From: an uncultured Candidatus Peribacteria bacterium
GTDB taxonomy: Bacteria; Patescibacteriota; Gracilibacteria; Peribacterales; Peribacteraceae
Assembly (NCBI GenBank): GCA_964548055.1
Contig: CAZJPS010000002.1
Coordinates: 1 to 41,943, forward strand
Reading direction: 5' to 3'
DNA: 41,943 bases
The notes beneath the pieces were generated by a model. That model saw nothing but the letters and a program-made list of their open reading frames with translations, was not told the DNA's origin and did not search any database. Both the position numbers and the translations under genes were made by a program. Of this stretch, positions 607-22,510 are shown in pieces. The first letter of the stretch is position 1; every line of letters begins with the position of its first letter.

Positions 607-1422
607 TTATTGAAAGAACCACTGCCATCCTTTTTGAGGTGGCGTGACCATCGTCACTGGCCTGCCCTCGATAGATTCAATTTTTTCGTCTTTTTCAACA
701 ATTCCCAGAACAGACGGCAGCAGCATGTAGGTGATGCCATGAGAGCGGCAGACTCCTAGCAAGTTAATCGACTGCTCGATATCGCTGCACTGGATCATGT
801 GCGTGATCTTTTTTTCTTGTAGCACATCTTCCAATTTATTCAGTTTCCCAAGCACAGGCACTCCTTCTATCTCCGTTTCTTTCGCACCTCTGCCGTCCAG
901 TATTGCTACAGGACAGAGAGGACTTTTGCGTTTTTCCATCAGCGCAATTAATTTTTTTGATTCACGTGTGATTCCCACAATGAGTGTAGGGAAAGCAGGG
1001 GGAGAGCTGCGTAGGTTTCTGCGTTGAAACTGATCAAAAATGCAGTGCCAGAGCCACGTGAAGGCAGTGGTAAACACGAGTGCAAAAATAATCAGCATGC
1101 GGCTGAATATTCCTTGGAAGAGGAAAAAGTAACAAAGGGCCACAAATGCCACTCCTACCACGGATGAATAGATGATGTAGGCGAGGTTGCGTGGATCTGC
1201 TTGATTCCTGGTGAGTGCAAACGCTCTGGTAGTGATGAGCACGCACAGCCAGGGGATTGCACTTAATGCCACGGAGATCATGAACTTCTGCAAGGGGAGA
1301 TCAGATGAAAGGATCCATCCCACCCGCAAAAAATAGGCCAGTACAAAAGAGGCGATAAACAGAACAATATCGGACATCAGCCAGAGGATAAGGAGAGAAG
1401 TGCGGCGCATGGATGACATCAT
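607..1422 (-). CDS. N-terminal (TM + CoA-binding-like) module of a polyprenyl-phosphate glycosyl-1-phosphate transferase; the catalytic domain is absent
   Basis: The 271-aa ORF starts with several hydrophobic helices. It continues with TLIVGITRESKKLIALM..PVAILDG..IEGVPVLGKLNKLEDVL..ITHMIQ..GITYMLLP, which fits the WcaJ/WbaP-type N-terminal region. The ORF ends (..MVTPPQKGWQWFFQ*) where the Bac_transf catalytic domain would start. Confidence 0.5.
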   Translation of the reverse strand: MMSSMRRTSLLILWLMSDIVLFIASFVLAYFLRVGWILSSDLPLQKFMISVALSAIPWLCVLITTRAFALTRNQADPRNLAYIIYSSVVGVAFVALCYFFLFQGIFSRMLIIFALVFTTAFTWLWHCIFDQFQRRNLRSSPPAFPTLIVGITRESKKLIALMEKRKSPLCPVAILDGRGAKETEIEGVPVLGKLNKLEDVLQEKKITHMIQCSDIEQSINLLGVCRSHGITYMLLPSVLGIVEKDEKIESIEGRPVTMVTPPQKGWQWFFQ

Positions 1423-4400
1423 ACCGTATTGCCAGTTCCGCTATTGAATCCCTTAAACTTGCTCTGATCTATCTTCAATAACGACGAATCTCCAATACCA
1501 TCATTGATGATTTGGAAGATTTCCTGCTGTGTTTGGAGGTTTTCGTGATGAACTTGATCCCACGTTCCCTGTTCGAAGAAAGCCTTAAACGCTGTTTGTG
1601 CTTTGGTATCGAGTTTTACGGCTTCTTCATCAGCTTCGTCTTTATCCAAAAATTCCTTATATGTCCCGTCTTCCTGCTTCACGACCCATCTTTGTTTCAT
1701 CTCCTCCAGAAATTCCTCCGGATACGTGCTTATTAGTGAGTAGTACTTCACGGAAGTATGAGTGGGATATTTGTGGTCAATGCGCCGGATGCGGCCATCT
1801 GTTTGATAACGCATCAGATAATCTTCCTCTAGATCGTCACGAATAATGGCTTTGCCTCTCGTGAACGTCGTTCCTTCAGAACCAGCTTTATAGGTCGCCA
1901 CGAGTGCCTGGCAGCTCTTGGCGTTTTGGAAGCGCAGGCGGTGATAATCGAGAATATGCATGGGCTCGCTGTTTTTGTCCTCTGCTGTCGCCACGTTGAG
2001 TTCGCCCGTTTTCGTGTCGAACTCCCAGTTGCGCTTTCCCTGCGCTTTACGTTCGGCATGCTTGAAGTGGAGAGGATTGCCATCAGGACCGCGCTTGAAT
2101 TTTTTCGATCGCAGGGTTTCCAACCCCGTATACATGGCCGGATCGCGGTCGGCCAGCATCGACGCATACTTGTCGGTTTGTGAGTTGTAAGCGCAGAAGA
2201 CTACAGGCGGACGCCCTTCCTGATCGCACTCGGCGATGATTTCCCGCACTTTCTCCGCTTTTGGATCGCAGTCAGTCACTCCCACAAAGCTGGGATTGTT
2301 GATGATTTGGCGCATGGCATGTTTCTTTGTCATTTGGTCGCCGGTGTACAAGTTGTCCAACTTCGCAATTATGTCTTTTTTCTTTGGGAAGTTATGACCG
2401 TATGTGGCATACCACTTGGGGTAGTTCAAAAAGAGCTCATAGATCGCATGTGCTTGTTTTGGGTGCATAGTGAAGCTCCCAAGTCCCTTGTAGGGATCTA
2501 CATATTCCTTGGCAGGGAGCCGGTGTTTCTGTTCTTCAGCTGGCAAAGTAGGATCCATCAATTCCATCACATCGTCCTCCGTAAAACGCACCATGTGTTT
2601 TTCCAGGAGAAGGCGGAGCTTGCGTAACTCCTTAGGATCATCGGAAGGAAAGGCTTCTGCAAATGCTTTTGTGCTGGAAAATCGTTTATCGCCAGGATAA
2701 AAATGAGTGAGCAGACGGCAGAGTGTTTCCGGGTCTTTGGCCGGGGAAGCAGTGACGACGAGCAGAAATTTTCGGGGAAGTTTTAATGTGCCCTGCGTCT
2801 GTAGAGAGTCGTGGGTTAAGCTATGTCCTTCGTCCGTCACCACAACGAAGTCCGGACCCGATGCGAGGGAAAAACGCTCGGCATCTCCCAGGTCTCGCAA
2901 GAATTCGCGGTTCATAACGCGGTGACTCTCTGCGTTCTTCTCTAACAGATCTTTCCGCTTGGAAACAGTCATTTCTCTCAGTACGATCAGGTCAGGATCG
3001 GTCAGACATTCGTGTGCTTCCTCTTCCCAGCCACTCACTACTGCATTGGGAGCAACAATGCACATTTTCTCTCCATTGAGAGCGATGAGCACGATACTCG
3101 TTTTTCCTGTTCCAGGCGCGTTCGCAATAATGAATCCCGCTACTCCTTGCTGTTCCTGGGCTTCTGCCCCCTTCTTAGCAGAATTTTGTATTTCCACTTC
3201 TCTTATTTTTTTCAGAATAAGGCGGATACAGAATTTCTGGAAGAAGTACGGTTGCCGTTCAGGATGCACTCCTGGGAATGTCATCTCGTTGATTTCCTGG
3301 AAGTTCACCAGGACCTTACCCAAGATATTCTGCATGAATTTGCTCCGATGTTTGCGCATCAAAGAATTCACGTACCTTTTTCCTTCTTCGAATGACCGAC
3401 TGAATTTCTTAATCAGGAAGTGCTCGAATTGGTCCACATAGAATAGAGTCTTATGAGGTTCGGTCTGGATCTCCTTCATCAATTCATCACCCATACCGTT
3501 TAGGTAGCGCACTAGTTCCTCAATGTCATCCGGCGTCCCGGTTTGCCGCACTTTAAACACTTCTTGCGTACTGCGGATCCAGTGCTGCGTTTCATTTTCT
3601 TCATCTTTAGTCTCCGGACTCTCGACCCGGCACAAGCTCATGAGGCGGATAGAGTTCGTTTCTCCCGTTTTCAGAGGAGCACGCATAGTAAAACTGCCAT
3701 CCGGACTCACACGCACTCGATAGTGACGACACCCTGCCATATATACATACTCCGCACCCTTCGCCGTTCCTTCGATCACAAGAACATTCTCTGTCGTATG
3801 CTTGGGAATGGCAGTGTGAATGACGATATCCGGCAGCTCCTCTGGCCAACGCAGGTATTGCGCCTCTTTCGTAAGGTTCGCACGCGTACCTAAGTTACGG
3901 AAACCACGGATGACCAATCGCTCAATTTGTTCCTCTGTGAGTTTCAGATCTGGTCTTCTACTAAGAAGAAATGCGAGTTTCTTAGGAGAGTCCTGAAAAA
4001 TAGCTATCAGTTCCTCCAAACCCAACTCCGAAAGTTTTTCGTTCTCCAAATCAATCTGTGCATCTTCTCCTTGCTGAGCCATATCTACGGCAGTTGCATG
4101 ATCAATGCCTTTTTTACGGTATAAGAGGTAGGGGCGAACGGTCTTAAACTGTCCTTCAAAAAATGAATATGCAAGCAACTGTACAAGCGAACCTTGTGTA
4201 TACCTATATACCATTCCTTCGATAGCGATATCGCATAGTTCTGAGTCATTCCAATCAATGTGATCAATGCCCATATTTTCTAGCCCGAATGCTTTTTCAA
4301 GTATCAGGATATTTTGTAAGGTGTATATATCCGGATTCCTAAAGAAAACAGGCGGAGTTTTTGTAAGAATAGCTTCTGCTGCTGCAACTTTATGGCTCAC

Positions 4401-5804
4401 CCCTTTTTTTCGCATTGAAAGATATGCCTGGGCGAATTTTCTTGTGTTTTGTAAGAATGTTCTATCAATGAGTTCCCAAAGCTTACTCTGTGAGTACGTG
4501 AAAGTCTTTCCATCGATAGTGATATCCCGATTTTCTGTAATAGTTCTGTCAATCTCACCAATATCGTCCAATCCAAAAGCATCTTCGAGAATCTTAATAT
4601 TCTCAGGTGTATAGATACTCGGATTCTTGAAGAAAGTAACAGGTTTGTTATTTACTAGATTTAGCACCTCCGTTATTGCTGCTTCATGAGCCACTTCTTT
4701 CTGGCGCAAAGATAGATATATAGGCACTGGAACTCCTGATTTTTTGAAGAAGATTCTACCAAGCAAGTTAACTAGCGCATTTTGCGAATATTTATACGTC
4801 ACTTCTCCAATAGCAATATGACACTGTTTTGTACTTGTTCTATCAATCTCTCTAATATCGTCCAATCCAAACGCATCCTCGAGAATCTTAATATTCTCAG
4901 AAGTGTAAACATCTGGATTCTTAAAAAACGTCGTAGAATTTAATTGCTTAAGCTTATCTGCAAAATTCATCGCTTCTTCAATTGCTTTCTTTGGGTCCAT
5001 TCCTTGCTTACAAAGATGAAGAAATGGACGAACAAATTTTTTCACACCACTGAAGAATGTTCTTGCAAGTAAATTAAAAAGAGCGTTCTGCGAGTAGCAG
5101 AACGTCGTTTCCCCTATAGTGATCTTAAATGGCTTAGTATTTTTTTTACTAAGTTTACCTATATCTGTTACTCCAAATGCGTTTTCTAAAATCTTGATAT
5201 TTTGAGGAGAATATACTTCTGAGTTACTAAAGAATACGGAAGGGGTAGCAGATTTTTCTCTTTCCTTTAAAATTTGCGCTTCTATGAGCGCATCTTTATG
5301 ACTCATTCTTCTTTTACGCAAAGCAAGATACTTTGACACAGGTATACATGTTCCTTGGAAAAATGTTCTTGCGATCAAATGCACAAGTGTAGATTGCCGG
5401 TACTTATATGTCGTTTTACCAATAGTAAGCTTGCAAATGTCATAATTATTCACATCAATCTCCTCAATAATTTTTAGGTTAAAGACTCTTTCGAGAGCTT
5501 GAATATTTGCCGGTGTGTAAAAATCTGGGTTTTTTAGGATTCCTGCAATTTCTTGGGATCGTTCATAATTATTGATACTACCACCATTTGATGATGCTAA
5601 TTGAAATGAAGCACAGAATTTTTTCATAAGTACTCGGATACGTTTGGTTGTGCCTCCGTCGATTGCATCAGCAATTTCATGGAGTGTTTTTCGTTGTTCC
5701 TTGGTGATTCTCCTATTTATATGTTTTTGTAATTGCTCATGCAGTTCCTGTTTTTCAGGAATATCCAGTGGGCCGATTTTTTTAAGGACTTCCTGAACAT
5801 TCAT
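1419..5804 (-). CDS. giant SNF2-family helicase with an N-terminal five-fold ~100-aa repeat array and a central Ig-like stretch
   Basis: The ORF track gives 1419..5888. I prefer ATG 5804-5802 (MNVQEVLKK) because the longer form overlaps the end of the upstream gene (5833). Helicase motifs are present: I ANAPGTGKTS (3096-3119), II VVVTDEGHSL (DEGH at 2823-2834), III LLVVTASP, and the C-lobe LVATYKAGSEGTTFTRGKAIIRDD..YQTDGRIRRI. A beta-rich segment IVIHTAIPKHTTENVLVIEGTAKGAEYVYMAGCRHYRVRVSPDGSFTMRAPLKTGETNSIRLMSL sits between the repeats and the helicase. Confidence 0.85.
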   Translation of the reverse strand: MNVQEVLKKIGPLDIPEKQELHEQLQKHINRRITKEQRKTLHEIADAIDGGTTKRIRVLMKKFCASFQLASSNGGSINNYERSQEIAGILKNPDFYTPANIQALERVFNLKIIEEIDVNNYDICKLTIGKTTYKYRQSTLVHLIARTFFQGTCIPVSKYLALRKRRMSHKDALIEAQILKEREKSATPSVFFSNSEVYSPQNIKILENAFGVTDIGKLSKKNTKPFKITIGETTFCYSQNALFNLLARTFFSGVKKFVRPFLHLCKQGMDPKKAIEEAMNFADKLKQLNSTTFFKNPDVYTSENIKILEDAFGLDDIREIDRTSTKQCHIAIGEVTYKYSQNALVNLLGRIFFKKSGVPVPIYLSLRQKEVAHEAAITEVLNLVNNKPVTFFKNPSIYTPENIKILEDAFGLDDIGEIDRTITENRDITIDGKTFTYSQSKLWELIDRTFLQNTRKFAQAYLSMRKKGVSHKVAAAEAILTKTPPVFFRNPDIYTLQNILILEKAFGLENMGIDHIDWNDSELCDIAIEGMVYRYTQGSLVQLLAYSFFEGQFKTVRPYLLYRKKGIDHATAVDMAQQGEDAQIDLENEKLSELGLEELIAIFQDSPKKLAFLLSRRPDLKLTEEQIERLVIRGFRNLGTRANLTKEAQYLRWPEELPDIVIHTAIPKHTTENVLVIEGTAKGAEYVYMAGCRHYRVRVSPDGSFTMRAPLKTGETNSIRLMSLCRVESPETKDEENETQHWIRSTQEVFKVRQTGTPDDIEELVRYLNGMGDELMKEIQTEPHKTLFYVDQFEHFLIKKFSRSFEEGKRYVNSLMRKHRSKFMQNILGKVLVNFQEINEMTFPGVHPERQPYFFQKFCIRLILKKIREVEIQNSAKKGAEAQEQQGVAGFIIANAPGTGKTSIVLIALNGEKMCIVAPNAVVSGWEEEAHECLTDPDLIVLREMTVSKRKDLLEKNAESHRVMNREFLRDLGDAERFSLASGPDFVVVTDEGHSLTHDSLQTQGTLKLPRKFLLVVTASPAKDPETLCRLLTHFYPGDKRFSSTKAFAEAFPSDDPKELRKLRLLLEKHMVRFTEDDVMELMDPTLPAEEQKHRLPAKEYVDPYKGLGSFTMHPKQAHAIYELFLNYPKWYATYGHNFPKKKDIIAKLDNLYTGDQMTKKHAMRQIINNPSFVGVTDCDPKAEKVREIIAECDQEGRPPVVFCAYNSQTDKYASMLADRDPAMYTGLETLRSKKFKRGPDGNPLHFKHAERKAQGKRNWEFDTKTGELNVATAEDKNSEPMHILDYHRLRFQNAKSCQALVATYKAGSEGTTFTRGKAIIRDDLEEDYLMRYQTDGRIRRIDHKYPTHTSVKYYSLISTYPEEFLEEMKQRWVVKQEDGTYKEFLDKDEADEEAVKLDTKAQTAFKAFFEQGTWDQVHHENLQTQQEIFQIINDGIGDSSLLKIDQSKFKGFNSGTGNTV
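4071..5540 (-). repeat. five tandem intragenic repeats (periods 102/102/98/96 aa) inside the SNF2 gene
   Basis: Repeat units start at ORF residues 117, 219, 321, 419 and 515. The shared pattern is FFxNPx[IV]YTxxNIxILExAFGLxDIxxID...IxIGxxT[YF]xYSQxxLxxL[LI]xRxFF...YLx[LM]RxKGxxHxxA. Units 3 and 4 also share a ~80-nt nearly identical DNA block (4852-4930 versus 4559-4640). Confidence 0.9.
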
Positions 5805-5832
5805 GGGAATAACGGCCGGAAGAGGGGATATC

Positions 5833-6678
5833 CTATACTCCGGGGAAATAGTTTTCCACCCACTCCAACTTCTTCTGCAGCACCTCACTCTTCTCCGCTT
5901 TCTTTTCGAATCCTGCTTTATCAGTCATATACATACTGACGCTCTCCGCTAAATCTTCAAACGGATCTGTTTTTGCATAGGCAGTGACAAAGTCTTCAGA
6001 TTTTGCGTCAGATTTTTTGGTGGAACTGTTTTGCCACGAAAGGGAATAGAAACTCACGCTCGGATCATTATTCCAAAGGGGAGTGTTGCCATCCTTGAAG
6101 GCGCTGGCACCACTTGTAGAAGTTCCTTTCAAGCACGAAATATCCCAAAAGTGGCCAAGGCCTTCATGGCTTAAGAGTTCTTTAAATTCGGCATCGGATA
6201 GTGTGCCATTCATAATAATCACACCATCACCCGCAAGTCCGCGATGTTTGGGCTGATCGTACAGAACATAGTACTGGCGAAGTTTTTGTTGGCAGGAAGG
6301 CGGAAGAATACTCAGTACTTCACGTGTCATTGCTCGATGCTTTGGAAGAATATCTCCTTTTTCAATCGCTGAGAGCGGATCGATGGGAATAACTGGAATA
6401 GCTGCAAGATAAGGACCCTTGTGAGAGGAATCAGAAGAAACAGAAGAAATAGATGATTCAGAGGAAAAGTCATACGAATTGTTCATGAGCTGATGCACAT
6501 CATTCTTCCGATTCCTCTGAGTCGTCTGAATCCTCTGATTCTTTTCAATATTCCCATTATGGGCCACCACCTCAGTCCCACTTGCCATATTCACACCTTG
6601 TGATAGGCTCGGCTCTAGCCCAAGCAGAATTCCACAGGTTCCGAGAGTGACAATGGTAAGAAATTTTTTCAGGTTCAT
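5833..6678 (-). CDS. secreted protein with metallopeptidase-like HExxxH and EDLAE motifs
   Basis: The 281-aa ORF has a signal peptide (MNLKKFLTIVTLGTCGILLG) and a Ser-rich linker. It carries LLSHEGLGHFWD and a C-terminal FVTAYAKTDPFEDLAESV, which resemble putative zinc-binding metallopeptidases. It lies 28 nt upstream of the helicase on the same strand. Confidence 0.45.
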   Translation of the reverse strand: MNLKKFLTIVTLGTCGILLGLEPSLSQGVNMASGTEVVAHNGNIEKNQRIQTTQRNRKNDVHQLMNNSYDFSSESSISSVSSDSSHKGPYLAAIPVIPIDPLSAIEKGDILPKHRAMTREVLSILPPSCQQKLRQYYVLYDQPKHRGLAGDGVIIMNGTLSDAEFKELLSHEGLGHFWDISCLKGTSTSGASAFKDGNTPLWNNDPSVSFYSLSWQNSSTKKSDAKSEDFVTAYAKTDPFEDLAESVSMYMTDKAGFEKKAEKSEVLQKKLEWVENYFPGV

Positions 6679-6720
6679 TATCTCGTGAAAAAGGTAGATT
6701 TATACTATATTTCATATTAA

Positions 6721-8178
6721 ATGTCAACTATTATCGACACTGGTTCAGTAGAGCCCGGGCAAATGCACACGGTATCCATAGAAAAGCTTACATTTGGCGG
6801 TTCTGGTTTAGCGCATATCGGAACACTTCCAGTATTTGTGTCAGATAGCATTCCGGGTCAGAGCGTTGAAATTGTGATACTAAAAAGAAAGGACAATTAT
6901 GCAGAGGCCCGAGTGCACAAAGTGCTCCGAAAAGCTAAAGATGAAGTAATGGCTCGTTGCCCCCACTTTCATACATGTGGTGGGTGTGTGTGGCAGAATC
7001 TGCCGTACGATAAACAGATGTCGTACAAAGAAGATATTGTACGCGAAACGCTTGGCCACCTAACGCCAGTGGATGATGCGGTACGTGCATCACTTCCAGG
7101 ACGCGTACTGAAGATCATTCCAAGCCCTCAGATATTCCACTACCGGAATAAATTAGAACTTTCGTTTGGATATGAATCCATGCGTGAAGAAGAAAAAGCG
7201 GGTAAGCGTATTTATTTTGATGAAAATCCAACGGTAGGATTTCATCAGCCTGGTCAATGGTCCACCGTGTTGCCGATTAGTGAATGTCACTTATACGAAG
7301 AACAACTCCCTATGCTCCTAAGCCAGGTCCGACGCTTTATGGAGGAAACAAAGCTTCCAGTGTTTAATCCTAAAACGCAAAAAGGAATGCTCCGGAGTTT
7401 GCTGCTGCGCAGAGGGGTACATACAGGCGAACAGATGATTTGCTTCCTTGTGCATGCGAGGAAAAAAGAATTAGAGCCGCTTTTTCAGCTGTTTCTGCGC
7501 TATTTTGGCGGCCGTCCTAATTTGTCTTCGCTGCTGATTGTGGAACATTTGGGATTGAACGATAAACCTGACTTTCCCAAAATTCACTCGTTGCTTGGTA
7601 AGCAAACCGTGAGTGAGCGATTGTTCGATCTCACCTTTGAAATTTCTCCTTTCTCCTTTTTCCAAACAAATACACTTGCAGCGGAAAAGCTGTACCGCGC
7701 TATAGCAGATGCGGCGGATTTAGGATTACGCGATACGGTTCTGGATGCGTATTGCGGCATGGGAACGATTGGTCAATATCTTGCGCGCTTCTGCCAAAAA
7801 GTGGTGGGTATAGAAAGCCATCCCTCTGCTGTGGAGGATGCTCTGAAGAGCGCAGGCCGTAACAAAATTGGAAATATTAGTTTTTATAAGGGCAGAACAG
7901 AGCAGGTACTGTTACAGCAGTTAAAACCAGGGGGAAAGTATGCTTTTGATGTGATTGTGGTAGATCCGCCACGCGCAGGATTGCACCCCAAAGCCCGCGA
8001 AGCAATGTTGGCGCACAAACCAAAGAAGATTGTGTATGTGTCCTGCAACACCGCCACCTTCGCCCGCGATTTGGGTGATTTCCTTAAAGGAGGCTATGAC
8101 CTGCGCACCGTTCAGCCTGTGGATCTCTTCCCTCACACAGCACATATAGAGACAGTTGCACTTTTACAGAGGAAGTAA
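6721..8178 (+). CDS. rlmD: 23S rRNA (uracil-C5)-methyltransferase, RumA/RlmD family (TRAM + Fe-S + SAM MTase)
   Basis: It has an N-terminal TRAM-like region and a Cys cluster (CPHFHTCGGCVWQNLPY). It also carries FFQTN, VLDAYCGMGTIG, VVDPPRAGL and YVSCNTATFARD. Confidence 0.85.
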   Translation: MSTIIDTGSVEPGQMHTVSIEKLTFGGSGLAHIGTLPVFVSDSIPGQSVEIVILKRKDNYAEARVHKVLRKAKDEVMARCPHFHTCGGCVWQNLPYDKQMSYKEDIVRETLGHLTPVDDAVRASLPGRVLKIIPSPQIFHYRNKLELSFGYESMREEEKAGKRIYFDENPTVGFHQPGQWSTVLPISECHLYEEQLPMLLSQVRRFMEETKLPVFNPKTQKGMLRSLLLRRGVHTGEQMICFLVHARKKELEPLFQLFLRYFGGRPNLSSLLIVEHLGLNDKPDFPKIHSLLGKQTVSERLFDLTFEISPFSFFQTNTLAAEKLYRAIADAADLGLRDTVLDAYCGMGTIGQYLARFCQKVVGIESHPSAVEDALKSAGRNKIGNISFYKGRTEQVLLQQLKPGGKYAFDVIVVDPPRAGLHPKAREAMLAHKPKKIVYVSCNTATFARDLGDFLKGGYDLRTVQPVDLFPHTAHIETVALLQRK

Positions 8179-8744
8179 TGCGCATGATGGAAGGCGCTTT
8201 TGAGAATCGGCCACTCACAATACGCTGTGCGGTTCCAGGTGATATAGGCCATCTAGAATTACTGAGCGATTTTTCACTGAAAAGAAACCCAAACACGAAA
8301 GGAAAATTATTCAGCAATGATTACATCGCGCTAATAGCTCAGTCTGATTGGATAGATGAATCCGGACAGCGCAATGTGGTTGCGGGAGTAGCGATTTCAA
8401 AAATAATTCCCACGATTACATCGAATCTCATGAGGCTTTTTAATGATAAAACATTCAATGTGCAGAGTATTGAGAATACGAAAACATTGTGGATACAAGA
8501 AATAGCCGTTCATCAGTTTGCAATGCGGTATTTTGTAAGCTGTTGTTTAATTCAAGAATTTCAAATACTGGCAAAAGAGAACAAGTATGAAGGCATTGAA
8601 GTAAAAGCACCATGGAGCGATCAATTTTTAAATTCAGTGCTTCTTGATTGCAATTTTTCGGCGTTCGATCCTGTACTATGCGGTCTACCTTGTCATAATA
8701 GATTTTTTGTGTGGCCCGTTCGTAAAGATATATTTAGTAAGTAA
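8178..8744 (+). CDS. hypothetical protein, possibly a degenerate GNAT-like fold
   Basis: The 188-aa ORF has its ATG overlapping the rlmD stop (TAATG). LTIRCAVPGDIGHLELL and LWIQEIAVHQ resemble GNAT beta-strands, but I see no Q/RxxGxG/A acetyl-CoA motif. Confidence 0.35.
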   Translation: MRMMEGAFENRPLTIRCAVPGDIGHLELLSDFSLKRNPNTKGKLFSNDYIALIAQSDWIDESGQRNVVAGVAISKIIPTITSNLMRLFNDKTFNVQSIENTKTLWIQEIAVHQFAMRYFVSCCLIQEFQILAKENKYEGIEVKAPWSDQFLNSVLLDCNFSAFDPVLCGLPCHNRFFVWPVRKDIFSK

Positions 8745-8749
8745 GAGAT

Positions 8750-9214
8750 ATGCAGCGCATCACCCTTCTCTGCATCGGCACTGTAAAAGCGAAGTGGATA
8801 GAGGAAGGATGTAGTGAATACATCAAGCGCCTGCGTCCGCATGCAAAGCTAGAAATCATCGAACTTTCTCCTAGTAAACAGAAGGACAGTGAAAAGCAGC
8901 GTGAAGAGGAATCCAAAAAGATTTTGGATGTGCTTTCTACATCCGAAGGAGATGCCTGGATGCTGGACGAAAAAGGGGAGCGCATGACATCGCAGGAGTT
9001 TTCGTTTTTTCTTTCTCAGGCAAAAGATATTGGGCAAACCCTCATATTCATTTTAGGAGGAGCTTACGGTCTTTCCCCCACCATCCGCACACGCGTAAAA
9101 GGATCACTTCGCTTAAGCGATATGACCCTCCCACACGAGCTTTGCCGAGTTTTCTTTTTAGAACAGATGTACAGAGGAATAGAGATTGCGAAGGGGAGTG
9201 GTTACCATCACTAA
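8750..9214 (+). CDS. rlmH: 23S rRNA (pseudouridine1915-N3)-methyltransferase RlmH (SPOUT)
   Basis: The N-terminus MQRITLLCIGTVKAKWIEEGCSEYIKRL and the C-terminal FILGGAYGLSP...LRLSDMTLPHELCRVFFLEQMYRG...GSGYHH are typical of RlmH. Confidence 0.9.
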   Translation: MQRITLLCIGTVKAKWIEEGCSEYIKRLRPHAKLEIIELSPSKQKDSEKQREEESKKILDVLSTSEGDAWMLDEKGERMTSQEFSFFLSQAKDIGQTLIFILGGAYGLSPTIRTRVKGSLRLSDMTLPHELCRVFFLEQMYRGIEIAKGSGYHH

Positions 9215-9216
9215 TT

Positions 9217-9630
9217 TCACATCCACAACACAATCACGAGCGACATCGCCACCATGATCACGAGATGGTAGACGATATTGAAGAGGTACAAGGGTATCGA
9301 TCGTTTCTCCCACAGCACGCCATTCAAAAGAACGGCTGCAACAATGACCCACGACCAAAAGCCCAATTGCAGGGCGTCCATCATAGTAGAGGCATGGATG
9401 ATTGCGGCAAAGAGCGCGAATACGTAGGCAATGACAGCCTGCTGTATGAAGGCACTAACAATGCGAGGAAGCATGTTTTCTTGCTGTGCTTTCTGTTGTT
9501 CTGCCTCAGAAATATTCATGAGTGCCAGCCATTGTTTTCCAAATACTGGGCCATGCCACAGAAAACCAATAACAAAAGAAAGAATGGCAGCAACGAGGAC
9601 TGCTACAAAATTCACATCGAAATACATCAT
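9217..9630 (-). CDS. DUF1761 family membrane protein
   Basis: The N-terminus MMYFDVNFVAVLVAAILSFVIGFLWHGPVFGKQW matches DUF1761. The ORF is 137 aa with four hydrophobic segments. Confidence 0.7.
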   Translation of the reverse strand: MMYFDVNFVAVLVAAILSFVIGFLWHGPVFGKQWLALMNISEAEQQKAQQENMLPRIVSAFIQQAVIAYVFALFAAIIHASTMMDALQLGFWSWVIVAAVLLNGVLWEKRSIPLYLFNIVYHLVIMVAMSLVIVLWM

Positions 9631-9733
9631 ACAAACAGGGGAAGAGTGCGGAAAACGCTATCCCTTTTGGAGGATAGGGTCAATGTCTAAATACTTGTTT
9701 GGAGTACAAGCGATGTGAAGGTAACATTTTTCT

Positions 9734-10315
9734 ATGCAAACAACTCGCATGGAAGCCTTTAGCGATGGCGTGATTGCCATTCTTATTACGATCATGGTTT
9801 TGGAGCTCAAAGTACCGGAAGGCACAGATTTTGAGGCAATTCGTCCTCTTATGATGTCGTTCCTTACCTACGTGCTTAGTTTTATCTACTTGGGCATTTA
9901 TTGGAATAATCATCACCACTTGTTGCACGCTACCGACCATGTAGACGGAAGAATTTTGTGGGCGAATTTGCATCTGCTTTTCTGGCTTTCACTCATCACA
10001 TTCGCTACCGGTTGGATGGCCGAAAATCATCTGGCTCCAGTGGCAACTGCCGTATACGGTGCTGTGCTTTTGATGTGCGCTCTGGCCTATACGATTTTGC
10101 AGATTGCGATCATTAAACACGGTGGGCCAAATGCGCGGTTACGTGAGGCGATTGGAAAAGATATCAAAGGGAAAGTATCACTGGTGCTGTATGTTCTCTC
10201 TGTCCCCCTCGCATTTGCGAATCCATGGATATCGGTGGGTATATTTGTATTTGTGGCGTGTATGTGGCTTATTCCGGATCGCAGAATAGAATTGAGCCTT
10301 GAGCATACGCATTAG
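9734..10315 (+). CDS. TMEM175-family (DUF1211) potassium channel
   Basis: It carries the RMEAFSDGVIAILITIMVLEL signature (RxxxFSD on TM1) and has six predicted TM segments. Confidence 0.8.
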   Translation: MQTTRMEAFSDGVIAILITIMVLELKVPEGTDFEAIRPLMMSFLTYVLSFIYLGIYWNNHHHLLHATDHVDGRILWANLHLLFWLSLITFATGWMAENHLAPVATAVYGAVLLMCALAYTILQIAIIKHGGPNARLREAIGKDIKGKVSLVLYVLSVPLAFANPWISVGIFVFVACMWLIPDRRIELSLEHTH

Positions 10316-10477
10316 TACAAAGCACCTGATATCAGAATAGGGAAGGCAAATAACTGGTTATTTACCTACTCCTTCTTAAGCTGTGGAAGCGCTTTCCGTT
10401 TTCCAAAGCGAAAGCGGTGCATGCGCATTGCTCTTTGGCATAACGGTTTTCAGTTCAAAATCTTGCAGGAGTGTACG

Positions 10478-11290
10478 ATGAAGAATTTTTTCGAGAAGAA
10501 CATGATCAAGATCGCGTTCGTGAGCCTGCACCTGTGTGTGCTGGCTGTCTTTTTCGTTCAGCCGACTTGGACGTCAGCGTGCCTTTGCATAGGGTTTTAC
10601 TTCCTACGCATGTTTGGGATCACCGCGGGCTATCATCGCGGTCTTTCCCATCGATCCTACGAGTCAGGAAGATTCGTAAGGTTCATAATGGCGTGGCTGG
10701 GATGCAGCGCCATGCAGAAAGGACCCTTGTGGTGGGCCGCAAAGCATCGCGACCATCACAAGTACTCCGACACAGGCAATGATCCCCATTCGCCGGTCGC
10801 TCATGGGGTCTGGTGGTCTCACATTGGGTGGGTGCTTTCTTCGTATGAGGAGAAAAAAGCACCCTCCACGGTGAGGGATCTTGCGAAGGCGTGGGAGCTG
10901 CGCTTTCTTGATCGGTACCACTGGGTACCGGGGCTTAGTCTCGCAATTCTCTGTTTCACCTTGGATGGCTGGAGCGGAATTGTGTGGGGATTCGTGGTGA
11001 GCACCGTGCTGCTCTACCACGGGACGTTCCTCGTGAACTCCGTTTGCCATATTTTTGGCAGACAGCGGTTTAAGACAGGGGACCAGAGCAGGAACAACGC
11101 TCTGGTTGCAATCCTGTTCACGATGGGGGAAGGGTGGCATAACAACCACCATCACCGTCCTGCTCTAGCGCGGCAGGGAGTTACATGGTGGGAGCTGGAT
11201 TTTAGCTTCTACATCTTGTGGCTCCTTGCTCAGTGTCGGCTTGTGTGGAATCTGCACAAGCCACCGCCGCGTGGGCGGCTGGAAACCTAG
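10478..11290 (+). CDS. acyl-CoA/acyl-lipid delta-9-type fatty acid desaturase
   Basis: Three His boxes are present: HRGLSHRSY, HRDHHKYSD and GEGWHNNHHH. I prefer the start at ATG 10478 (MKNFFEK); the track ORF begins at 10421. Confidence 0.85.
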   Translation: MKNFFEKNMIKIAFVSLHLCVLAVFFVQPTWTSACLCIGFYFLRMFGITAGYHRGLSHRSYESGRFVRFIMAWLGCSAMQKGPLWWAAKHRDHHKYSDTGNDPHSPVAHGVWWSHIGWVLSSYEEKKAPSTVRDLAKAWELRFLDRYHWVPGLSLAILCFTLDGWSGIVWGFVVSTVLLYHGTFLVNSVCHIFGRQRFKTGDQSRNNALVAILFTMGEGWHNNHHHRPALARQGVTWWELDFSFYILWLLAQCRLVWNLHKPPPRGRLET

Positions 11291-11300
11291 CTAAAGAGCA

Positions 11301-11329
11301 GACCGCCTCCCTGTTATGGGGAGGCGGTC
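11301..11329 (+). terminator. hairpin terminator after the desaturase gene
   Basis: A perfect 11-bp stem pairs GACCGCCTCCC (11301-11311) with GGGAGGCGGTC (11319-11329) around a 7-nt loop. It is followed by ATTTATT. Confidence 0.6.
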
Positions 11330-11353
11330 ATTTATTGATACCGCAAAGGAGAT

Positions 11354-11381
11354 TTGATACAGAAGTCATATTCGCTATACT
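11354..11381 (+). promoter_or_regulatory. sigma70-type promoter for tRNA-Glu
   Basis: TTGATA (11354-11359) and TATACT (11376-11381) are separated by a 16-nt spacer. A GC-rich discriminator (CCGCGCGC) follows. The promoter lies about 45 nt upstream of the tRNA. Confidence 0.5.
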
Positions 11382-11426
11382 CCGCGCGCTCTCTTTCAGG
11401 CAGAATAGAGCCAAATCTTCTCGTAC

Positions 11427-11501
11427 GGCCTCATCGTCTAACGGTTAGGACAGCAGGTTCTCATCCTGCAAATCGGGGTTCGATTCCCCGTGGGGCTGCC
11501 A
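11427..11501 (+). tRNA. tRNA-Glu: tRNA-Glu (anticodon CTC at 11460-11462), with CCA encoded
   Basis: I folded the cloverleaf by hand. The acceptor pairs GGCCTCA with TGGGGCT (two G-U pairs) and the D arm is GTCTAACGGTTAGGAC. The anticodon stem GCAGG/CCTGC carries the loop TTCTCAT. The T arm is CGGGG-TTCGATT-CCCCG, followed by discriminator G and CCA. Confidence 0.9.
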
Positions 11502-11513
11502 CTATTCGTGAAA

Positions 11514-11532
11514 GAAAACCTTCCAGGTTTTC
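11514..11532 (+). terminator. small hairpin downstream of the tRNA
   Basis: GAAAACC-TTCCA-GGTTTTC forms a 7-bp stem and is followed by TCTC. The signal is weak. Confidence 0.3.
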
Positions 11533-11862
11533 TCTCACGGGCTCTCTTTCTGGCAAAGTGCGCCTCCACTTCGGGCAAAGCCCTCGTTCGGCGTTGTTTC
11601 AGTGCTCGAAATCATGGGCATGGGTGATGTGATGGAGGCGCTGAATGTGTCTCGAGAAAAAGGGAAATCACTAGGCAATAGAGATTCTGATTACATTTCT
11701 TAGGACTGCATACCAATGAACCATTCGAAGACACCTGTTTGAGAAAGTCGTGGGGCTGCCAACGTCAGGAGCTGCAATATTCATTCACTATTGCCGTTTC
11801 AGATGCCCGTACACGCACAGCATGAGGTTTTCAGTGCATGTGCGCCGTGCTACCATTTGTTT

Positions 11863-12609
11863 ATGCAAAAGCATTTCAACGCAATTTCCATGATCTTCGC
11901 CGTATTGGCCTGCACTGCATGCAGTTCCAAGACCTCAGTTCAACAATATGAAAACTCGTCTTCTGTTGCAGAAATATCTTTCAGTTCTTCTTCCGTGCAT
12001 GAGGAATCCAAAAGCAGTGTTCCGGAGTCAGTTCCGTCTGTCACGTATGTGGACGGCATTTGCGGAAGCAAAATTCCCTCTACGTGGCATGTGCGCTCCC
12101 AAGATAATCAAGCGGTATGGAATAGAGAGGGCAACATAGAACCTCCCACGGTTTTAACGGCAGATGCGATAATACAAAGACTTGTTGAATGGGACACTCC
12201 GTTATTTAAGCCGGCGCTCTATAGCATGGCAGATGCGGATACGGCATTACGCGGCCACTCAGAGGATCCCGGAGCCGAGGATGCCAATCGCAATGAAATA
12301 GACATCCTTCAGCTTTCCACTGTTGAATTTAAAAACCTTACCACTCTGCTTAATGCGCCACCCGCTCAATATACCTGGGATAAAATTGTGACACCCACAC
12401 ATGAATTGAGTGTTTTGCGGAATACTGATGAAAGCGGAAAATACTATGGTATGGAGCTTTTATTTATTCCCGCAGAGAAGAATGGGAGAAATTCTGGCCT
12501 TATTATAGTAAATCGTTCCAATGATCATGAGTGGAATGAGACATTCCGCGATGGGTTTAGGCATTTCCTAAATACGATAGATTTTAAGAAATGTCCGTCA
12601 GACTGGTAG
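11863..12609 (+). CDS. hypothetical lipoprotein
   Basis: I prefer the start at MQKHFNAISMIFAVLACTACSSK, which gives a signal peptide with a lipobox-like LACTAC. A Ser-rich linker follows, and I recognise no other domain. Confidence 0.6.
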   Translation: MQKHFNAISMIFAVLACTACSSKTSVQQYENSSSVAEISFSSSSVHEESKSSVPESVPSVTYVDGICGSKIPSTWHVRSQDNQAVWNREGNIEPPTVLTADAIIQRLVEWDTPLFKPALYSMADADTALRGHSEDPGAEDANRNEIDILQLSTVEFKNLTTLLNAPPAQYTWDKIVTPTHELSVLRNTDESGKYYGMELLFIPAEKNGRNSGLIIVNRSNDHEWNETFRDGFRHFLNTIDFKKCPSDW

Positions 12610-12738
12610 ATAAGGCAGGGTTTTGGATCAGTAAGTATATCATTGTATGAATCAATGAATCTGAATCGAATGTAGCATTGCCATCGCATACAAGATTATT
12701 GAAGATGTGATTTCTGAAATATTTTTTCTCAAAAAACC

Positions 12739-12779
12739 TTGACCGCTCAATGTTAGCACTCTATACTGTTGAGTGCTAA
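12739..12779 (+). promoter_or_regulatory. sigma70 promoter overlapped by a perfect CIRCE (HrcA operator) element
   Basis: TTGACC (12739-12744) and TATACT (12762-12767) are separated by a 17-nt spacer. TTAGCACTC (12753-12761), N9, GAGTGCTAA (12771-12779) equals the CIRCE consensus exactly. Confidence 0.8.
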
Positions 12780-12803
12780 TTTTATTTCATTCCCCCAATT
12801 TCT

Positions 12804-13286
12804 ATGCAGTTAATGCCATGGAAACGAAACGATGCAGTGGAGCGGGGTGTGACACTCCGCGACGCAATGAATCAATTATTTGATGAATCTTTCTGGGATC
12901 CCATGCGATTCTTTTCTGATCAATCCTTATTTACTACCGAACGCAAATGGCAATTCCTTCCTAGTTTTGATATTGCTGAAACAGACAAGGAATTACACAT
13001 CGTTGCAGATGTTCCTGGGTACGATCCAAAGAATGTTCATGTGAAAATTGATAACGGTATTCTGACCATTGAAGGAACAATGGAAGAAGACAAAGAAGAG
13101 AAGAATAAAAAATGGCATCGCCGCGAAACATCGCGCGGAAACTTTATGAGGCAGGTTTCTTTGCCACAGGGAGTGAGCGATAAAGATGTGAAATGCAAAC
13201 TGAAGAATGGCAAGCTGACTATTTCTGTTCAAAAGCCTAAAGAAATTCAGTCCCAAGGAAAAATGCTTCAGATTGAATCGGAATAA
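12804..13286 (+). CDS. Hsp20/alpha-crystallin family small heat-shock protein
   Basis: The alpha-crystallin domain reads FLPSFDIAETDKELHIVADVPGYDPKNVHVKIDNGILTIEG...GNFMRQVSLPQGV...KLKNGKLTISVQKP. Confidence 0.9.
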   Translation: MQLMPWKRNDAVERGVTLRDAMNQLFDESFWDPMRFFSDQSLFTTERKWQFLPSFDIAETDKELHIVADVPGYDPKNVHVKIDNGILTIEGTMEEDKEEKNKKWHRRETSRGNFMRQVSLPQGVSDKDVKCKLKNGKLTISVQKPKEIQSQGKMLQIESE

Positions 13287-13304
13287 ATCGGTGTATGTAT
13301 GAGA

Positions 13305-13331
13305 ATGGCAGGCAATCCCTGCCATTTTTTT
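13305..13331 (+). terminator. rho-independent terminator of hsp20
   Basis: ATGGCAGG (13305-13312) pairs with CCTGCCAT (13318-13325). A T7 run follows at 13326-13331. Confidence 0.75.
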
Positions 13332-13385
13332 GAATGCAGAAGATACTGCGGCAATTAAACAATCTTTGCGGGAGACTAAAAAATT

Positions 13386-13601
13386 ATGAGCGGGAATTTT
13401 TCCTCTATACGACAGGGAAGGGTGTATACTGCACGCATGGAAAAAATTCGCATTGAGCAGCATAGTGCGATGGGCGGTGCTTGGTTCGCACTGTGGCTCT
13501 TCACCATTGGCTTTCTGCAGTTAAGTTTCTGGAAAGGGGTCCTGGCGCTACTGCTATGGCCATACTTTCTTGGCGCAGCGATGAGCAGTATCGTCCGGTA
13601 A
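13386..13601 (+). CDS. small two-TM membrane protein
   Basis: The 71-aa ORF contains GGAWFALWLFTIGFLQLSFWKGVLALLLWPYFLG, which looks like a conserved small membrane protein. The start could instead be the internal MEKIRIEQ. Confidence 0.5.
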   Translation: MSGNFSSIRQGRVYTARMEKIRIEQHSAMGGAWFALWLFTIGFLQLSFWKGVLALLLWPYFLGAAMSSIVR

Positions 13602-13976
13602 TACTCTCGTGATGTCAGTGAGGCGTCCGCGGAATCTTCCAATGACACGGTTCGTTGCACTGTGTGCAGTACTGCTCGCCGCCATCGTGTGGTGCGCCAC
13701 GTACGCATGCTGCATTGCAGCAGCCTGAGCGGATAAGATCCCGTATTTCGGCTGGAAGAACTCTTCTTTGTTCTACTGTAAAATGTTTGGGGCAATAGGG
13801 TTTCCCATGCGAAGCGTTGCCGCATCCCTTAAAAGGGCAGATTTCACGTTTTTTTTGAATGAGTGGGGAGGGAAAGGTGAGAGCGTTACTATCTTCACAC
13901 TACTCGTCTTTTGTGTTCTATCCTAGAAAAGAAATCACTTTCTTTTGCGTGCAGAAGTCTTGTACCGGGCTTTTTC

Positions 13977-14612
13977 CTACGCTATTTGCGTACAATGCTT
14001 CATTTCTCTTTCCAGGAGTGCTGCCTTCACTGCTGCTCCCCATCTATATCCAGAAAGTGAGCCATCCGCTCGTATCACCCTGTGGCAGGGGATGATGACG
14101 GCGATTTGGTTGGAGGCACAGGCTTGCGCTACTGCTCGCATGGCTTTTGGTTTGCTTATCCTTTGTGCAATCTCTGCGTATGAGGCCGTTGTTCCCAAAG
14201 GGATCGTGCGCAGGGCGTTCCAAACGTTTTTTTGAAATTCCGTACCGTGTATGTCGAGCGGTACATGGATGGATGAGCCAGGGGTTTCTATGGCGTCTAT
14301 TACTCTGCATATGCATGTTTGTATCTCAGGATCTCTTGCGCTTAACACAGCATGAGGGAAACTCGTCTGGAACTCACTCAGAAGTACAGCACTGTTCGTG
14401 CCTATCGTAATCGCAAAAACACCCTTCTCCGACACAGCGACCAACACAGACCCAAGAGAAGATGTTCCCACTGCAAAACGAATGAGGGGATTCTTCGTTG
14501 CCGAAATAGATCTTTTGCGGAGCGATACAGGGGTTCTCATACATTCAGTGTAGCGTCTTTTCGCAGTATCTCCTCTTCCTCCCATATTTTCTACTTTCAC
14601 TCTCACTCCCAT
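13977..14612 (-). CDS. ogt: methylated-DNA--protein-cysteine methyltransferase
   Basis: It has the active-site PCHRVIRADGSLSGYRWG and the HTH segment TASYAEIAQRISKPKAMRAVAQAC. Its ATG overlaps the upstream stop in a TAATG at 14610-14614. Confidence 0.85.
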   Translation of the reverse strand: MGVRVKVENMGGRGDTAKRRYTECMRTPVSLRKRSISATKNPLIRFAVGTSSLGSVLVAVSEKGVFAITIGTNSAVLLSEFQTSFPHAVLSARDPEIQTCICRVIDAIETPGSSIHVPLDIHGTEFQKNVWNALRTIPLGTTASYAEIAQRISKPKAMRAVAQACASNQIAVIIPCHRVIRADGSLSGYRWGAAVKAALLEREMKHCTQIA

Positions 14613-15619
14613 TATTCTTTTTCCAATTTCATCACCTCCTCCGCAACATACTTCGTATACACATGCGCCCCCGCATCATTGGTATGCGTAAGATCACTTA
14701 AATACTGATCATCCATCACCCAAAGCTTGGGAAGAACTCTACAATTGTGCGTGGGTGCCAATTCTTGCTGAACTCTTGTGAAAAGTTTTTCTATCGATCT
14801 CCCAATTCTTTGGTCGGTTTCTACTACGTGTGAAAGGGGATTGAAGGCGAGGTACAGCTGAATATTATTCTCTTCAGCAAGCGTACACAGTTCATGGAGG
14901 AGCGGCATACTGTAGGTAGCAAGGTTCAATCCTCCACCACTGAGTGTGAGTTTATAGAATGGATCTAGATTTCTTTCCGATAATTCCAAATTTGGGTGAT
15001 GCATCTGCGGATTGAAAGGTTCGTATCCCTTCAGTCCTTTGCCCTCCATATATTTGAGCATGTTTTCATACTGCGCTTGTTTGTTCAGCAGTGCACCACG
15101 CGTAAATGCCACTTTTTCGCGGTACATGAACGATGGAAACACTTTCTCGAAGAGCAGACGGCCGAACTGCGGCACCGACATCACACCGCTCTTAGTGGCG
15201 CGCAGGGCAACATCGGTGTTGTTGAACTGAAGACGCACAATTTCGTATCCGTAGCCGATGTACCAAGAGAGAACACTGCGCACGAGCACAATGGTTGTAG
15301 GTGCTGGATGATGGTCCAGGTAATCCCGAAGCAAATAGATATCGCCAATCGCATTCCTATCGGCGTACGTGGTGAGATTGAGAGTCTTCTTCCCCGTCAC
15401 GTGTTCGTACACATCGGGGATAATTCCCTGAATGCCTGTGGAATCTCCCAGAATCAACGTGTCGTAATTGGTAGGTTCCGCAATCAGCTCCTTTTTTTTC
15501 TCTACCCTATCCCATTCTTTCCACTCCACCGGAAATGATTTGTAGATCACAGGAACCAACTGCTCTGTTGTGAGCAGAAGAATCACACATGCCCCAATCT
15601 GGAGGACTTTTCGGTTCAT
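14612..15619 (-). CDS. SGNH/GDSL-like partner of the MBOAT (DltD/PatB/AlgJ-like O-acyl transfer protein)
   Basis: I prefer the start at ATG 15619 (MNRKVLQIGACVILLL), which gives a signal anchor. It has the TLILGDSTG block I and the SDLTHTNDAGAH DxxH block V. A TAATG overlap joins it to the MBOAT stop at 15617-15621. Confidence 0.65.
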   Translation of the reverse strand: MNRKVLQIGACVILLLTTEQLVPVIYKSFPVEWKEWDRVEKKKELIAEPTNYDTLILGDSTGIQGIIPDVYEHVTGKKTLNLTTYADRNAIGDIYLLRDYLDHHPAPTTIVLVRSVLSWYIGYGYEIVRLQFNNTDVALRATKSGVMSVPQFGRLLFEKVFPSFMYREKVAFTRGALLNKQAQYENMLKYMEGKGLKGYEPFNPQMHHPNLELSERNLDPFYKLTLSGGGLNLATYSMPLLHELCTLAEENNIQLYLAFNPLSHVVETDQRIGRSIEKLFTRVQQELAPTHNCRVLPKLWVMDDQYLSDLTHTNDAGAHVYTKYVAEEVMKLEKE

Positions 15620-17013: not shown

Positions 17014-17102
17014 CGGTCAGTTAAGCAAATTTTGGATCGTATCGCTATGTAACTTGGAGCGGACAGTTTTTAGTTTGTAGTTTTTGGTTTTTAGGAAGAG
17101 AT

Positions 17103-17660: not shown

Positions 17661-17726
17661 AGGGTTATTATAGGGAATATGGCGCTTGCCTCATAGCCAA
17701 GCAGTCAGATTTCTTACTAGGCCTGC

Positions 17727-17777: not shown

Positions 17778-17835
17778 CCCGCCTTCGCCCATTATTATTT
17801 CTTGCAGTTGAGGAGGCTACGGTGGGCGAGAAGGG

Positions 17836-22493: not shown

Positions 22494-22510
22494 GGGAGGC
22501 GATACAAATT

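Follow-up and report, generated by a model that had tools for sequence, protein, structure and literature searches.

A five-unit array of a new domain family ahead of an SNF2-family motor in Peribacteria: a candidate exchangeable targeting module

The helicase gene and its domain organization

The DNA considered here, which we call the window, is a stretch of 41,943 nucleotides from an uncultured Candidatus Peribacteria bacterium (GenBank assembly GCA_964548055.1, contig CAZJPS010000002.1, positions 1 to 41,943 of the forward strand). On its minus strand it encodes an SNF2-family protein whose N-terminal part is built from five tandem copies of a domain of about 100 residues. An earlier reading of the letters alone (the original prediction) had singled out this repeat and proposed that it forms a modular recognition array for nucleic acid or protein.

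An open reading frame (ORF) spanning both the array and the motor runs over 1419..5888 on the minus strand. Its start is likely the ATG at 5804, because the N-termini of homologs and the position of the upstream gene favour it; the gene then occupies 1419..5804, with the stop codon at 1419-1421, and encodes 1461 amino acids (aa), over whose full length homologs can be aligned at 35-39% identity. The residue numbers of the original prediction were counted from a GTG at 5888, 28 residues upstream of this ATG; those given below start at the ATG. All features of the gene named below lie on the minus strand.

The protein begins with a helical, basic leader (aa 1-86; 5547..5804) with an isoelectric point (pI) of 9.5 and an array-like GC content at third codon positions (GC3) of 0.27. 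When N-termini are compared by eye, its 'DGG..K' motif is also found in homologs that carry arrays of the domain described here (type A) or arrays of a different module (type B). The array itself covers aa 87-582 (4059..5546) and consists of five tandem units of 96-102 aa each, which are delimited by unit alignments: unit 1 (aa 87-188; 5241..5546) and unit 2 (aa 189-290; 4935..5240), both also matched by the unit profile, unit 3 (aa 291-388; 4641..4934), which was modelled with AlphaFold2, unit 4 (aa 389-484; 4353..4640), whose fold recurs in a model of three units, and unit 5 (aa 485-582; 4059..4352), which is part of the same three-unit model.

Behind the array lies a conserved helical linker (aa 583-673; 3786..4058), whose helices are predicted with lower confidence and whose consensus is 'LS.L.LE.AI.L...P.KLK.YL....P.LSE.EIDRLV..SF.GL'. 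It is followed by an Ig-like sandwich of seven beta-strands (about aa 674-754; 3543..3785), by a helical bundle (about aa 760-876; 3177..3527) that holds the family signature FFQK[FY]C, and by the SNF2 ATPase (1422..3164), which contains a large insertion in lobe 2.

The motor is a member of the SNF2 family by lobe-1 criteria, and its translocase activity is predicted. Motifs I (GTGKT, aa 898-902), II (DEGH, aa 991-994), III (TASP, aa 1018-1021) and VI (QTDGRIRR, aa 1334-1341) can be located; Pfam SNF2-rel_dom matches aa 885-1090 with 30.8 bits (cut-off 24.9), and the family profile matches lobe 1 of ISWI, Sso1653, CHD1L, DDM1 and INO80 with E-values from 3e-13 to 1.5e-7. The core also matches phrog_62 'DNA helicase', a phage profile of 1881 positions, over aa 820-1230 (2.5e-25). 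Lobe 2 carries the long insertion and gives a weak match to lobe 2 of Sso1653 (E 0.0034); Pfam Helicase_C does not match it, and motif VI was read by eye. With a Walker A motif, a DExH box and SNF2 profile matches in place, the array does stand in front of an SNF2 motor, as had been proposed.

The Ig-like segment that had been noticed behind the array was also recovered. A structure model of aa 291-880 (12 alignment rows, five of them covering the core) reached a mean predicted local distance difference test score (pLDDT) of 81, with the seven strands of the sandwich above 90. The Foldseek matches of this model are exclusively sandwiches of the Ig, FN3 or BIg type (SoxY, an FN3-like domain of CbhA, BIg of SiiE, VNAR), with probabilities of 0.94-1.00 at target template modelling (TM) scores of 0.57-0.62 and E-values of only 0.02-0.1.

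Sequence and predicted fold of the unit

The five copies of about 100 residues were confirmed by unit alignments, in which they share 35-51% pairwise protein identity and 16 invariant columns that include the conserved skeleton described earlier; the unit starts given there correspond to aa 89, 191, 293, 391 and 487 and coincide with the FFxNP motifs. BLASTP of unit against unit scores 72-92 bits, far above chance. At the DNA level Tandem Repeats Finder detected no repeat in the array, and the best direct repeat, between units 3 and 4, extends over 158 nucleotides with 73% identity. Judged by their sequences, the copies are old and diverged.

The model of unit 3, computed from a 49-row alignment of units, is of high confidence (pLDDT 96, predicted TM score (pTM) 0.87). 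Its topology is a helix, a beta-hairpin and three further helices (a-bb-aaa): a1 at 302-312, the hairpin at 327-332/335-340, a2 at 341-353, a3 at 360-368 and a4 at 373-386. In the models about 75 residues of each unit form a globular core and about 25 serve as a linker.

This domain could not be assigned to any known family, either by sequence or by fold, in agreement with the original prediction. Searches with the whole protein and with the array gave no significant match for the unit in Pfam, NCBIfam, PHROGs or PADLOC; unit profiles made from 5 and from 49 sequences found nothing significant among all PDB sequences (best E 0.026), and the 49 units, compared singly with Pfam, gave a best E of 0.0017, with no family matched by more than one unit. 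Foldseek likewise returned no credible neighbour of the unit 3 model, neither in the PDB (best E 0.79, query TM at most 0.28) nor in BFVD (best E 0.35, query TM at most 0.37), and the root-mean-square deviation of the matches in both was mostly about 9-14 Å. Because neither the sequence nor the fold searches gave a match, we regard the type A unit as a new domain family and, going by the model, possibly as a new fold. A known helix-turn-helix (HTH) or KilA-N-type domain had been named as the finding that would overturn this view, and no unit or profile matched an annotated family or a solved structure. By eye, the segment 'YL.LRK.G.SH.EA' can be read as HTH or SAP-like; this reading received no profile support among the 49 units compared with Pfam and was set aside, and weak matches to PUA_2, MbpA, Aca3, PcrIIC1, STS178 and RelB were judged to be due to chance.

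In the three-unit part of the longer model each unit refolds with a pLDDT of 85-95. The pTM is 0.29, the pLDDT dips at the junctions and no confident geometry between units is predicted; these dips and the low pTM suggest a flexible array of the beads-on-a-string type. Arginine or lysine is conserved at profile positions 43, 58 and 65 in 70-75% of 79 units, and these positions lie exposed on the hydrophilic sides of helices a2 and a3. The pI of the window array is 8.95, that of units 1-2 is 9.6 and that of the acidic unit 5 is 4.6. Variation among the units is spread over many positions, with an entropy above 3 bits at most exposed ones.

Occurrence of the module and of the motor core

The five-unit profile was searched against 1.84 billion (1.84e9) representative proteins and gave 13 matches, nine of which (9/13) were credible after reading of the sequences and iteration; the remainder (P0007, P0008, P0012 and P0013) are likely spurious, being short partial matches in unrelated repetitive proteins. 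The architecture of the window protein, a type A array with a motor of the same family, recurs in P0002, P0005, P0009 and P0011. In P0010 five type A units are fused to a different SNF2 family, and P0001, P0003, P0004 and P0006 consist of the array only, P0006 having nine units. By this search the module is very rare. Three to nine type A units are found per protein, and all credible matches accompany an SNF2 motor, fused or encoded by an adjacent gene, with the exception of one archaeal contig. Where these proteins have a public name, it is 'hypothetical protein'; literature searches on Peribacteria or Patescibacteria and SNF2 brought up no description of the protein or the module, and the Peribacteria genome paper (PMC4736985) names neither.

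A scan for the core by patterns and tblastn over 185,579 species-representative genomes found 28 loci, nearly all of them in metagenome-assembled genomes of Candidatus Peribacteria or Peregrinibacteria, so that at least 28 species genomes of these groups have kept the motor core (aa 583-1461). JGI metagenomes, scanned with the core, yielded five more loci, of which two have type A units; the same metagenomes scanned with patterns of the window units gave no match.

Two of the homologous loci (which carry L numbers) show peculiarities of their own. Locus L013 has two paralogous array-helicase genes in tandem (5766-9749 and 9920-13938), with four and five units; two overlapping ORFs (9920-13129 and 13042-13938) make up the second gene. 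At L022 (10016-12241) the reading frame of the ortholog is fragmented into many short ORFs, which means either a pseudogene or a genome read with the wrong genetic code.

Exchange of N-terminal arrays between orthologs

In every ortholog locus the similarity to the window protein starts at aa 583-600 and continues to the C-terminus; what precedes it differs. Type A arrays, of three to seven units, are present in the window, L001-L003, both L013 genes, L018, L020, L021, L035 and L037. In at least ten orthologs (L004-L007, L009-L012, L015 and L025) the N-terminus is instead a type B array, made of a tandem module of about 75 aa with the consensus 'VAACET.EDFL.LF..HG....W.NS..L...GW.GFL.FMG'; examples are L006 8726-10030 and L010 4859-6800. 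Two of the array-only proteins, P0003 and P0004, have lone type B units as well. Type A and type B profiles, compared with hhalign, are unrelated (probability 0.2%), and the type B module has no match in Pfam or among PDB sequences; Nif11, considered for the type B arrays, was rejected because it reaches a summed score only, with no single stretch passing.

Further tandem modules (types C, D and E) occupy the same place in single examples: a unit of about 85 aa, 'EYFREHAREDYEACAKANGGKV', in L017 (8561-10000), one of about 65 aa in L014 (7822-9050), which is also present at the N-terminus of P0003, and one of about 100 aa, 'DWFQIS..SM.DVMKSG', in L026 (8093-10000). None has a convincing Pfam match; the pattern of the L014/P0003 unit resembles winged helices of the MerR/excisionase type, by eye only. 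L023, L024 and L027 have a short, non-repetitive N-terminus and no array. At least four apparently unrelated types of tandem module replace type A among the orthologs.

In a neighbour-joining tree of the core, computed with no support values, types A and B are intermingled; for instance, L002 (A) has L025 (B) as its partner, and L021 and L013 (both A) form a group with L006 (B). From these sequence comparisons it is not in doubt that N-terminal arrays were swapped among orthologs, the number of swaps being uncertain. Moreover, type A units mostly group with others of the same array, and units at corresponding positions of different arrays are not orthologous. Units 3-4 of L018 and units 1-2 of P0010 are 52-63% identical, across two helicase families, so that in this case units are closer across families than within an array.

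Base composition points to separate histories of the two parts of the gene. The DNA of the array has a GC content of 0.34-0.40, compared with about 0.45-0.52 around it, a difference that resides in synonymous positions. GC3 is 0.27-0.35 for aa 1-582 (4059-5804; 0.32 for the array) and 0.51-0.55 for aa 583-1461 (1419-4058; 0.54 for the core), and the switch is sharp, falling exactly at aa 583, where ortholog similarity begins. The same direction is seen in nearly all loci with a complete N-terminus, whatever the GC content of the genome (N-terminal part versus core: L003 0.32 vs 0.61; L018 0.35 vs 0.61; L010 0.64 vs 0.84), and the array-only genes have a GC3 below that of the neighbouring helicase genes. 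This contrast suggests that the array DNA has a history different from that of the core, through exchange or faster turnover.

A second SNF2 family and archaeal-looking contexts

The array-only genes P0001, P0003 and P0004, together with P0014, a close relative, each have as their immediate downstream neighbour a gene for an SNF2 protein of a second family. The members of this family are related to one another (E 1e-20 to 1e-120) and cannot be aligned with the window core by BLASTP. A complete member, from L033, has 1301 aa and a C-terminal class I S-adenosylmethionine (SAM) methyltransferase domain. At L034 (2917-7789), P0010 and the overlapping next ORF, which encodes a helicase C-lobe and methyltransferase, align to this single gene; the two are probably one array-fused gene of the second family interrupted by a frameshift or a sequencing error.

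A three-gene cluster recurs in L029 (299-5944), L030 (1-6009) and L033 (8196-15968), formed by a gene for a protein with type B units, a type A array-only gene and a second-family SNF2 gene; in L032 (6041-10864) the first of these genes was not seen. The array-only proteins of the cluster share a conserved C-terminal tail, 'GIQ.....A..LL..EI.RL..LG'. Since the module is found in fusion with both SNF2 families and also as a separate gene beside the second, we have classical evidence of the 'Rosetta stone' type that module and SNF2 motors are functionally linked and, as far as gene arrangement can tell, probably also physically.

Two archaeal-looking contexts were found. On the archaeal-looking contig L031 (2-6045) two array-only genes lie next to an archaeal RadA gene (Pfam Rad51, 235 bits). 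L020, labelled Micrarchaeota, has a seven-unit array with the core (8234-12727), and its neighbours (12894-18889) include PcrB, TruD and NFACT_N. These cases suggest either transfer between bacteria of the Candidate Phyla Radiation (CPR) and DPANN archaea, or mis-binning.

Genomic context in the window

The gene upstream of the helicase (5833..6678, minus strand) carries HEGLGH, matches Peptidase_Mx1 weakly, with 28.3 bits (cut-off 25.6), and TIGR04549 partially, and has a hydrophobic N-terminus; it encodes a putative zinc metallopeptidase, either secreted or a lipoprotein. The ATG at 5804 follows its stop codon at a distance of 28 nucleotides, exactly the spacing reported for this HExxxH protein. 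A role for it alongside the helicase found no support: it is absent beside the helicase in the 28 homologous loci, and its adjacency is therefore probably incidental. Indeed, none of the window neighbours recurs in these loci, and all-against-all clustering of the locus ORFs revealed nothing in common beyond closely related genomes; clusters that seemed to be conserved neighbours turned out to be antisense shadow ORFs within the helicase gene.

Partner genes of known SNF2-containing defence systems had been reported as missing, and PADLOC in fact assigns 0 families to the protein and ten neighbouring genes. For the array alone, PADLOC scores are below threshold: KwaB at 2.3e-05 with 0 stretches, AbiEi at 0.017 and DrmA at 0.021 with one marginal stretch each. 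Viral contigs contained no relatives of the core when searched with its alignment, and none of the unit when searched with window-derived patterns only. The neighbours of the helicase gene include the housekeeping genes for RlmD, RlmH and tRNA-Glu, and judged by this context the gene itself appears to be chromosomal and to stand alone in housekeeping surroundings.

Some other genes of the window deserve mention. Directly downstream of the helicase, the minus-strand ORF at 607-1422 (271 aa) encodes the N-terminal membrane and CoA_binding_3 part only of a polyprenyl glycosylphosphotransferase, aligning to positions 1-253 of a profile of 445, with the catalytic C-terminal part missing from the ORF. 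A TIR-TPR protein is encoded at 22869-24707 by DNA with a GC content of 0.60 and a GC3 of 0.69, much above the rest of the window, and an rve-type integrase/transposase gene (21408-22667) adjoins it; the TIR-TPR gene looks like a horizontally acquired defence-type gene. At 34460-38535 the gene for a 7TM_transglut membrane protein precedes one for a 797-aa fusion of a sugar-transfer-associated ATP-grasp and a MATCAP-like carboxypeptidase.

Discussion

With moderate confidence, we propose that the array is an exchangeable, multivalent targeting module of an SNF2 translocase, arranged as beads on a string. In this scheme aa 583-1461 would be the conserved motor, specific to CPR bacteria of the Peribacteria/Peregrinibacteria lineage, and the type A array its variable N-terminal part. 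A flexible string of similar binding domains could, by making several weak contacts, keep the translocase bound to its substrate, and, by analogy with the accessory domains of other SNF2 enzymes, the array may pick the substrate of the motor. The favoured ligand would be DNA, or a DNA-bound or nucleoid-associated target, because the partner is always a motor of the double-stranded-DNA-translocase type and because three exposed basic positions are conserved. That the array binds, that it targets the motor and what it binds are points that we infer from sequences, and the evidence for a DNA ligand is thin.

The recognition array originally proposed thus gains indirect support, from the nearly exclusive association of the module with SNF2 motors and from the swapping of modules between orthologs. 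Its analogy to repeat readers of the TALE or PUF type, and with it a TALE-like code, finds no support: the units are independent globular domains with no confident packing between them, their variation is not concentrated in a short code, and there is no positional orthology.

Several observations count against the targeting proposal. On average the units are only slightly basic (mean net charge +1, range -7 to +10), unit 5 being acidic, and so mild and uneven a charge gives weak support to uniform DNA binding. Most of the conserved residues look structural (hydrophobic core, glycine turns, an S-x-x-E helix cap), and no nucleic-acid-binding fold or motif was detected in the unit by Foldseek in PDB and BFVD or by profiles in PDB sequences and Pfam. 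The low pTM of the three-unit model may stem from its shallow 12-row alignment and not from flexibility; the low GC3 of the array could result from relaxed codon selection instead of exchange; and on the archaeal-looking contig L031 the two array-only genes have no helicase within its 6 kb.

Two other explanations, a protein-binding adaptor and an immune sensor, are serious rivals. In the first, the units would bind protein, recruiting the motor to nucleoid proteins, RNA polymerase or another machine. Such an adaptor is possible, if doubtful: it would suit the high variability of the exposed positions, the wide span of unit charges, the missing match to a nucleic-acid-binding fold and the replacement of whole modules between close orthologs, which is typical of interaction modules, but no candidate partner gene is conserved nearby, the three exposed basic positions are kept across all arrays, and the many copies in an array point to a target that is itself repetitive or polymeric, as DNA is. 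An immune role, in which the protein would be a stand-alone SNF2 defence or conflict protein whose arrays sense phage DNA or proteins and whose motor (in the second family together with the methyltransferase) is the effector, seems unlikely to us. The cassette-like turnover, AT-rich synonymous composition and exchange of modules do resemble the sensor domains of defence genes, the core matches a phage profile (phrog_62), the second partner family is an SNF2-methyltransferase fusion, and the spread of the family reaches at least one archaeal-looking contig. However, PADLOC gave no significant match for the protein and none for ten genes around it; in contrast to patchy defence islands, the core is native-like in GC3 and has been kept, beside housekeeping genes, by at least 28 species genomes; the protein lacks a nuclease domain or any other toxic effector; and the viral contigs held no relatives of the core, nor did the window-derived unit patterns match any of them. 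Broader still, and rather improbable in our judgement, is the idea that the motor is a chassis for interchangeable arrays of types A-E, acting as multivalent readers that would direct the motor, or the motor and methyltransferase, to lineage-specific DNA sequences or invader molecules.

The two remaining explanations would take away any specific function or the array itself. A passive spacer or oligomerisation region with no specific ligand would agree with the beads-on-a-string prediction and with a copy number varying from 3 to 9, and is very unlikely, given that each unit is well folded and under selection, with many positions conserved across 79 units, that the array is kept as a separate gene beside the second helicase family, and that five different elaborate domain types would be needless for such a task. 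That the array is an artefact of assembly or annotation, for instance a collapsed repeat or a chimeric contig in which a low-GC fragment was fused to the helicase, we consider improbable in the extreme. The drop of GC across 4000-5800 is the sole point in its favour. The units differ by 49-65% in protein and by at least 27% in DNA, and since copies so diverged at the DNA level (at most 73% identity) cannot come from a misassembled, collapsed repeat, the possibility that had been raised as a threat to the original prediction is excluded. Moreover, one uninterrupted ORF crosses the junction of array and core, and the same architecture recurs in independent assemblies, with the same GC3 contrast.

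Returning to the exchangeable targeting module, its interest lies in the fact that SNF2 motors are generic and that accessory domains set what they do. The type A unit is an undescribed domain family, whose confident fold prediction has no counterpart in PDB or BFVD. Its evolution is unusual, one orthologous motor being combined with at least five types of tandem module and with compositional signs of exchange, and the same type A module serves two SNF2 families, either fused or as a neighbouring gene. The hosts are CPR bacteria and probably DPANN archaea, whose DNA transactions and conflict systems have hardly been explored. Should the arrays be specific readers of DNA or protein, they would provide new modular binding domains and a handle on genome organisation or defence in these symbionts; if the chassis idea were true, it would amount to a new cassette-based principle of targeting or immunity in ultra-small symbionts (CPR, DPANN), with at least one new fold.

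Comparison with known systems

Several SNF2 enzymes carry accessory domains: the tandem HARP domains of SMARCAL1, the double chromodomains of CHD, SANT/SLIDE in ISWI and the tandem Tudor-like domains of bacterial RapA, whose N-terminal domains tie this enzyme to RNA polymerase. Like them, the window protein has an SNF2 motor, recognised by its lobe 1 and motifs I, II and III (motif VI being readable in a weakly matching lobe 2), and in front of it repeated small domains that, by analogy, plausibly choose the substrate. It differs from them in that its domain is new and present in 3-9 copies rather than 1-2, and in that type A arrays are swapped wholesale for unrelated tandem modules and can be encoded by a separate upstream gene.

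The helicase-associated (HA) domain of Pfam (PF03457), a short helical repeat found in several copies on bacterial helicases, is likewise a small, poorly understood domain placed in tandem on a helicase. The type A unit, in contrast, is longer and has a beta-hairpin, and in the Pfam comparison the HA profile is matched neither by the protein nor by the units nor by type B arrays. In TALE, PUF and PPR proteins, helical repeats of about 30-40 residues (about 33-36) are stacked into one rigid superhelix with a short specificity code. The window protein shares with them a tandem array of similar units beside, or acting on, nucleic acid; its units, however, have 96-102 aa, are independently folded with no confident packing predicted between them, and are 35-51% identical to each other instead of being near-identical with a few specificity positions.

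With the defence proteins DrmD/DrmA of DISARM and ZorD of Zorya, the window protein has in common an SNF2-type motor and fast-evolving non-catalytic regions, but it matches no PADLOC model, shows no partner genes among ten neighbours and lies in a gene context that is not conserved. DarB-like proteins are large helicase or helicase-methyltransferase proteins of phages and plasmids. The similarity to this group (phrog_62, DarB-like) consists in the match of the core to phrog_62 and in the second family, which joins SNF2 to a class I SAM methyltransferase; the window protein itself, however, is without a methyltransferase domain in Pfam searches, and viral contigs searched with the alignment of its core gave no relatives. 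The steering of an SNF2 motor by accessory domains is known, and what is new here is the domain, its copy number and its cassette-like substitution across orthologs and two motor families.

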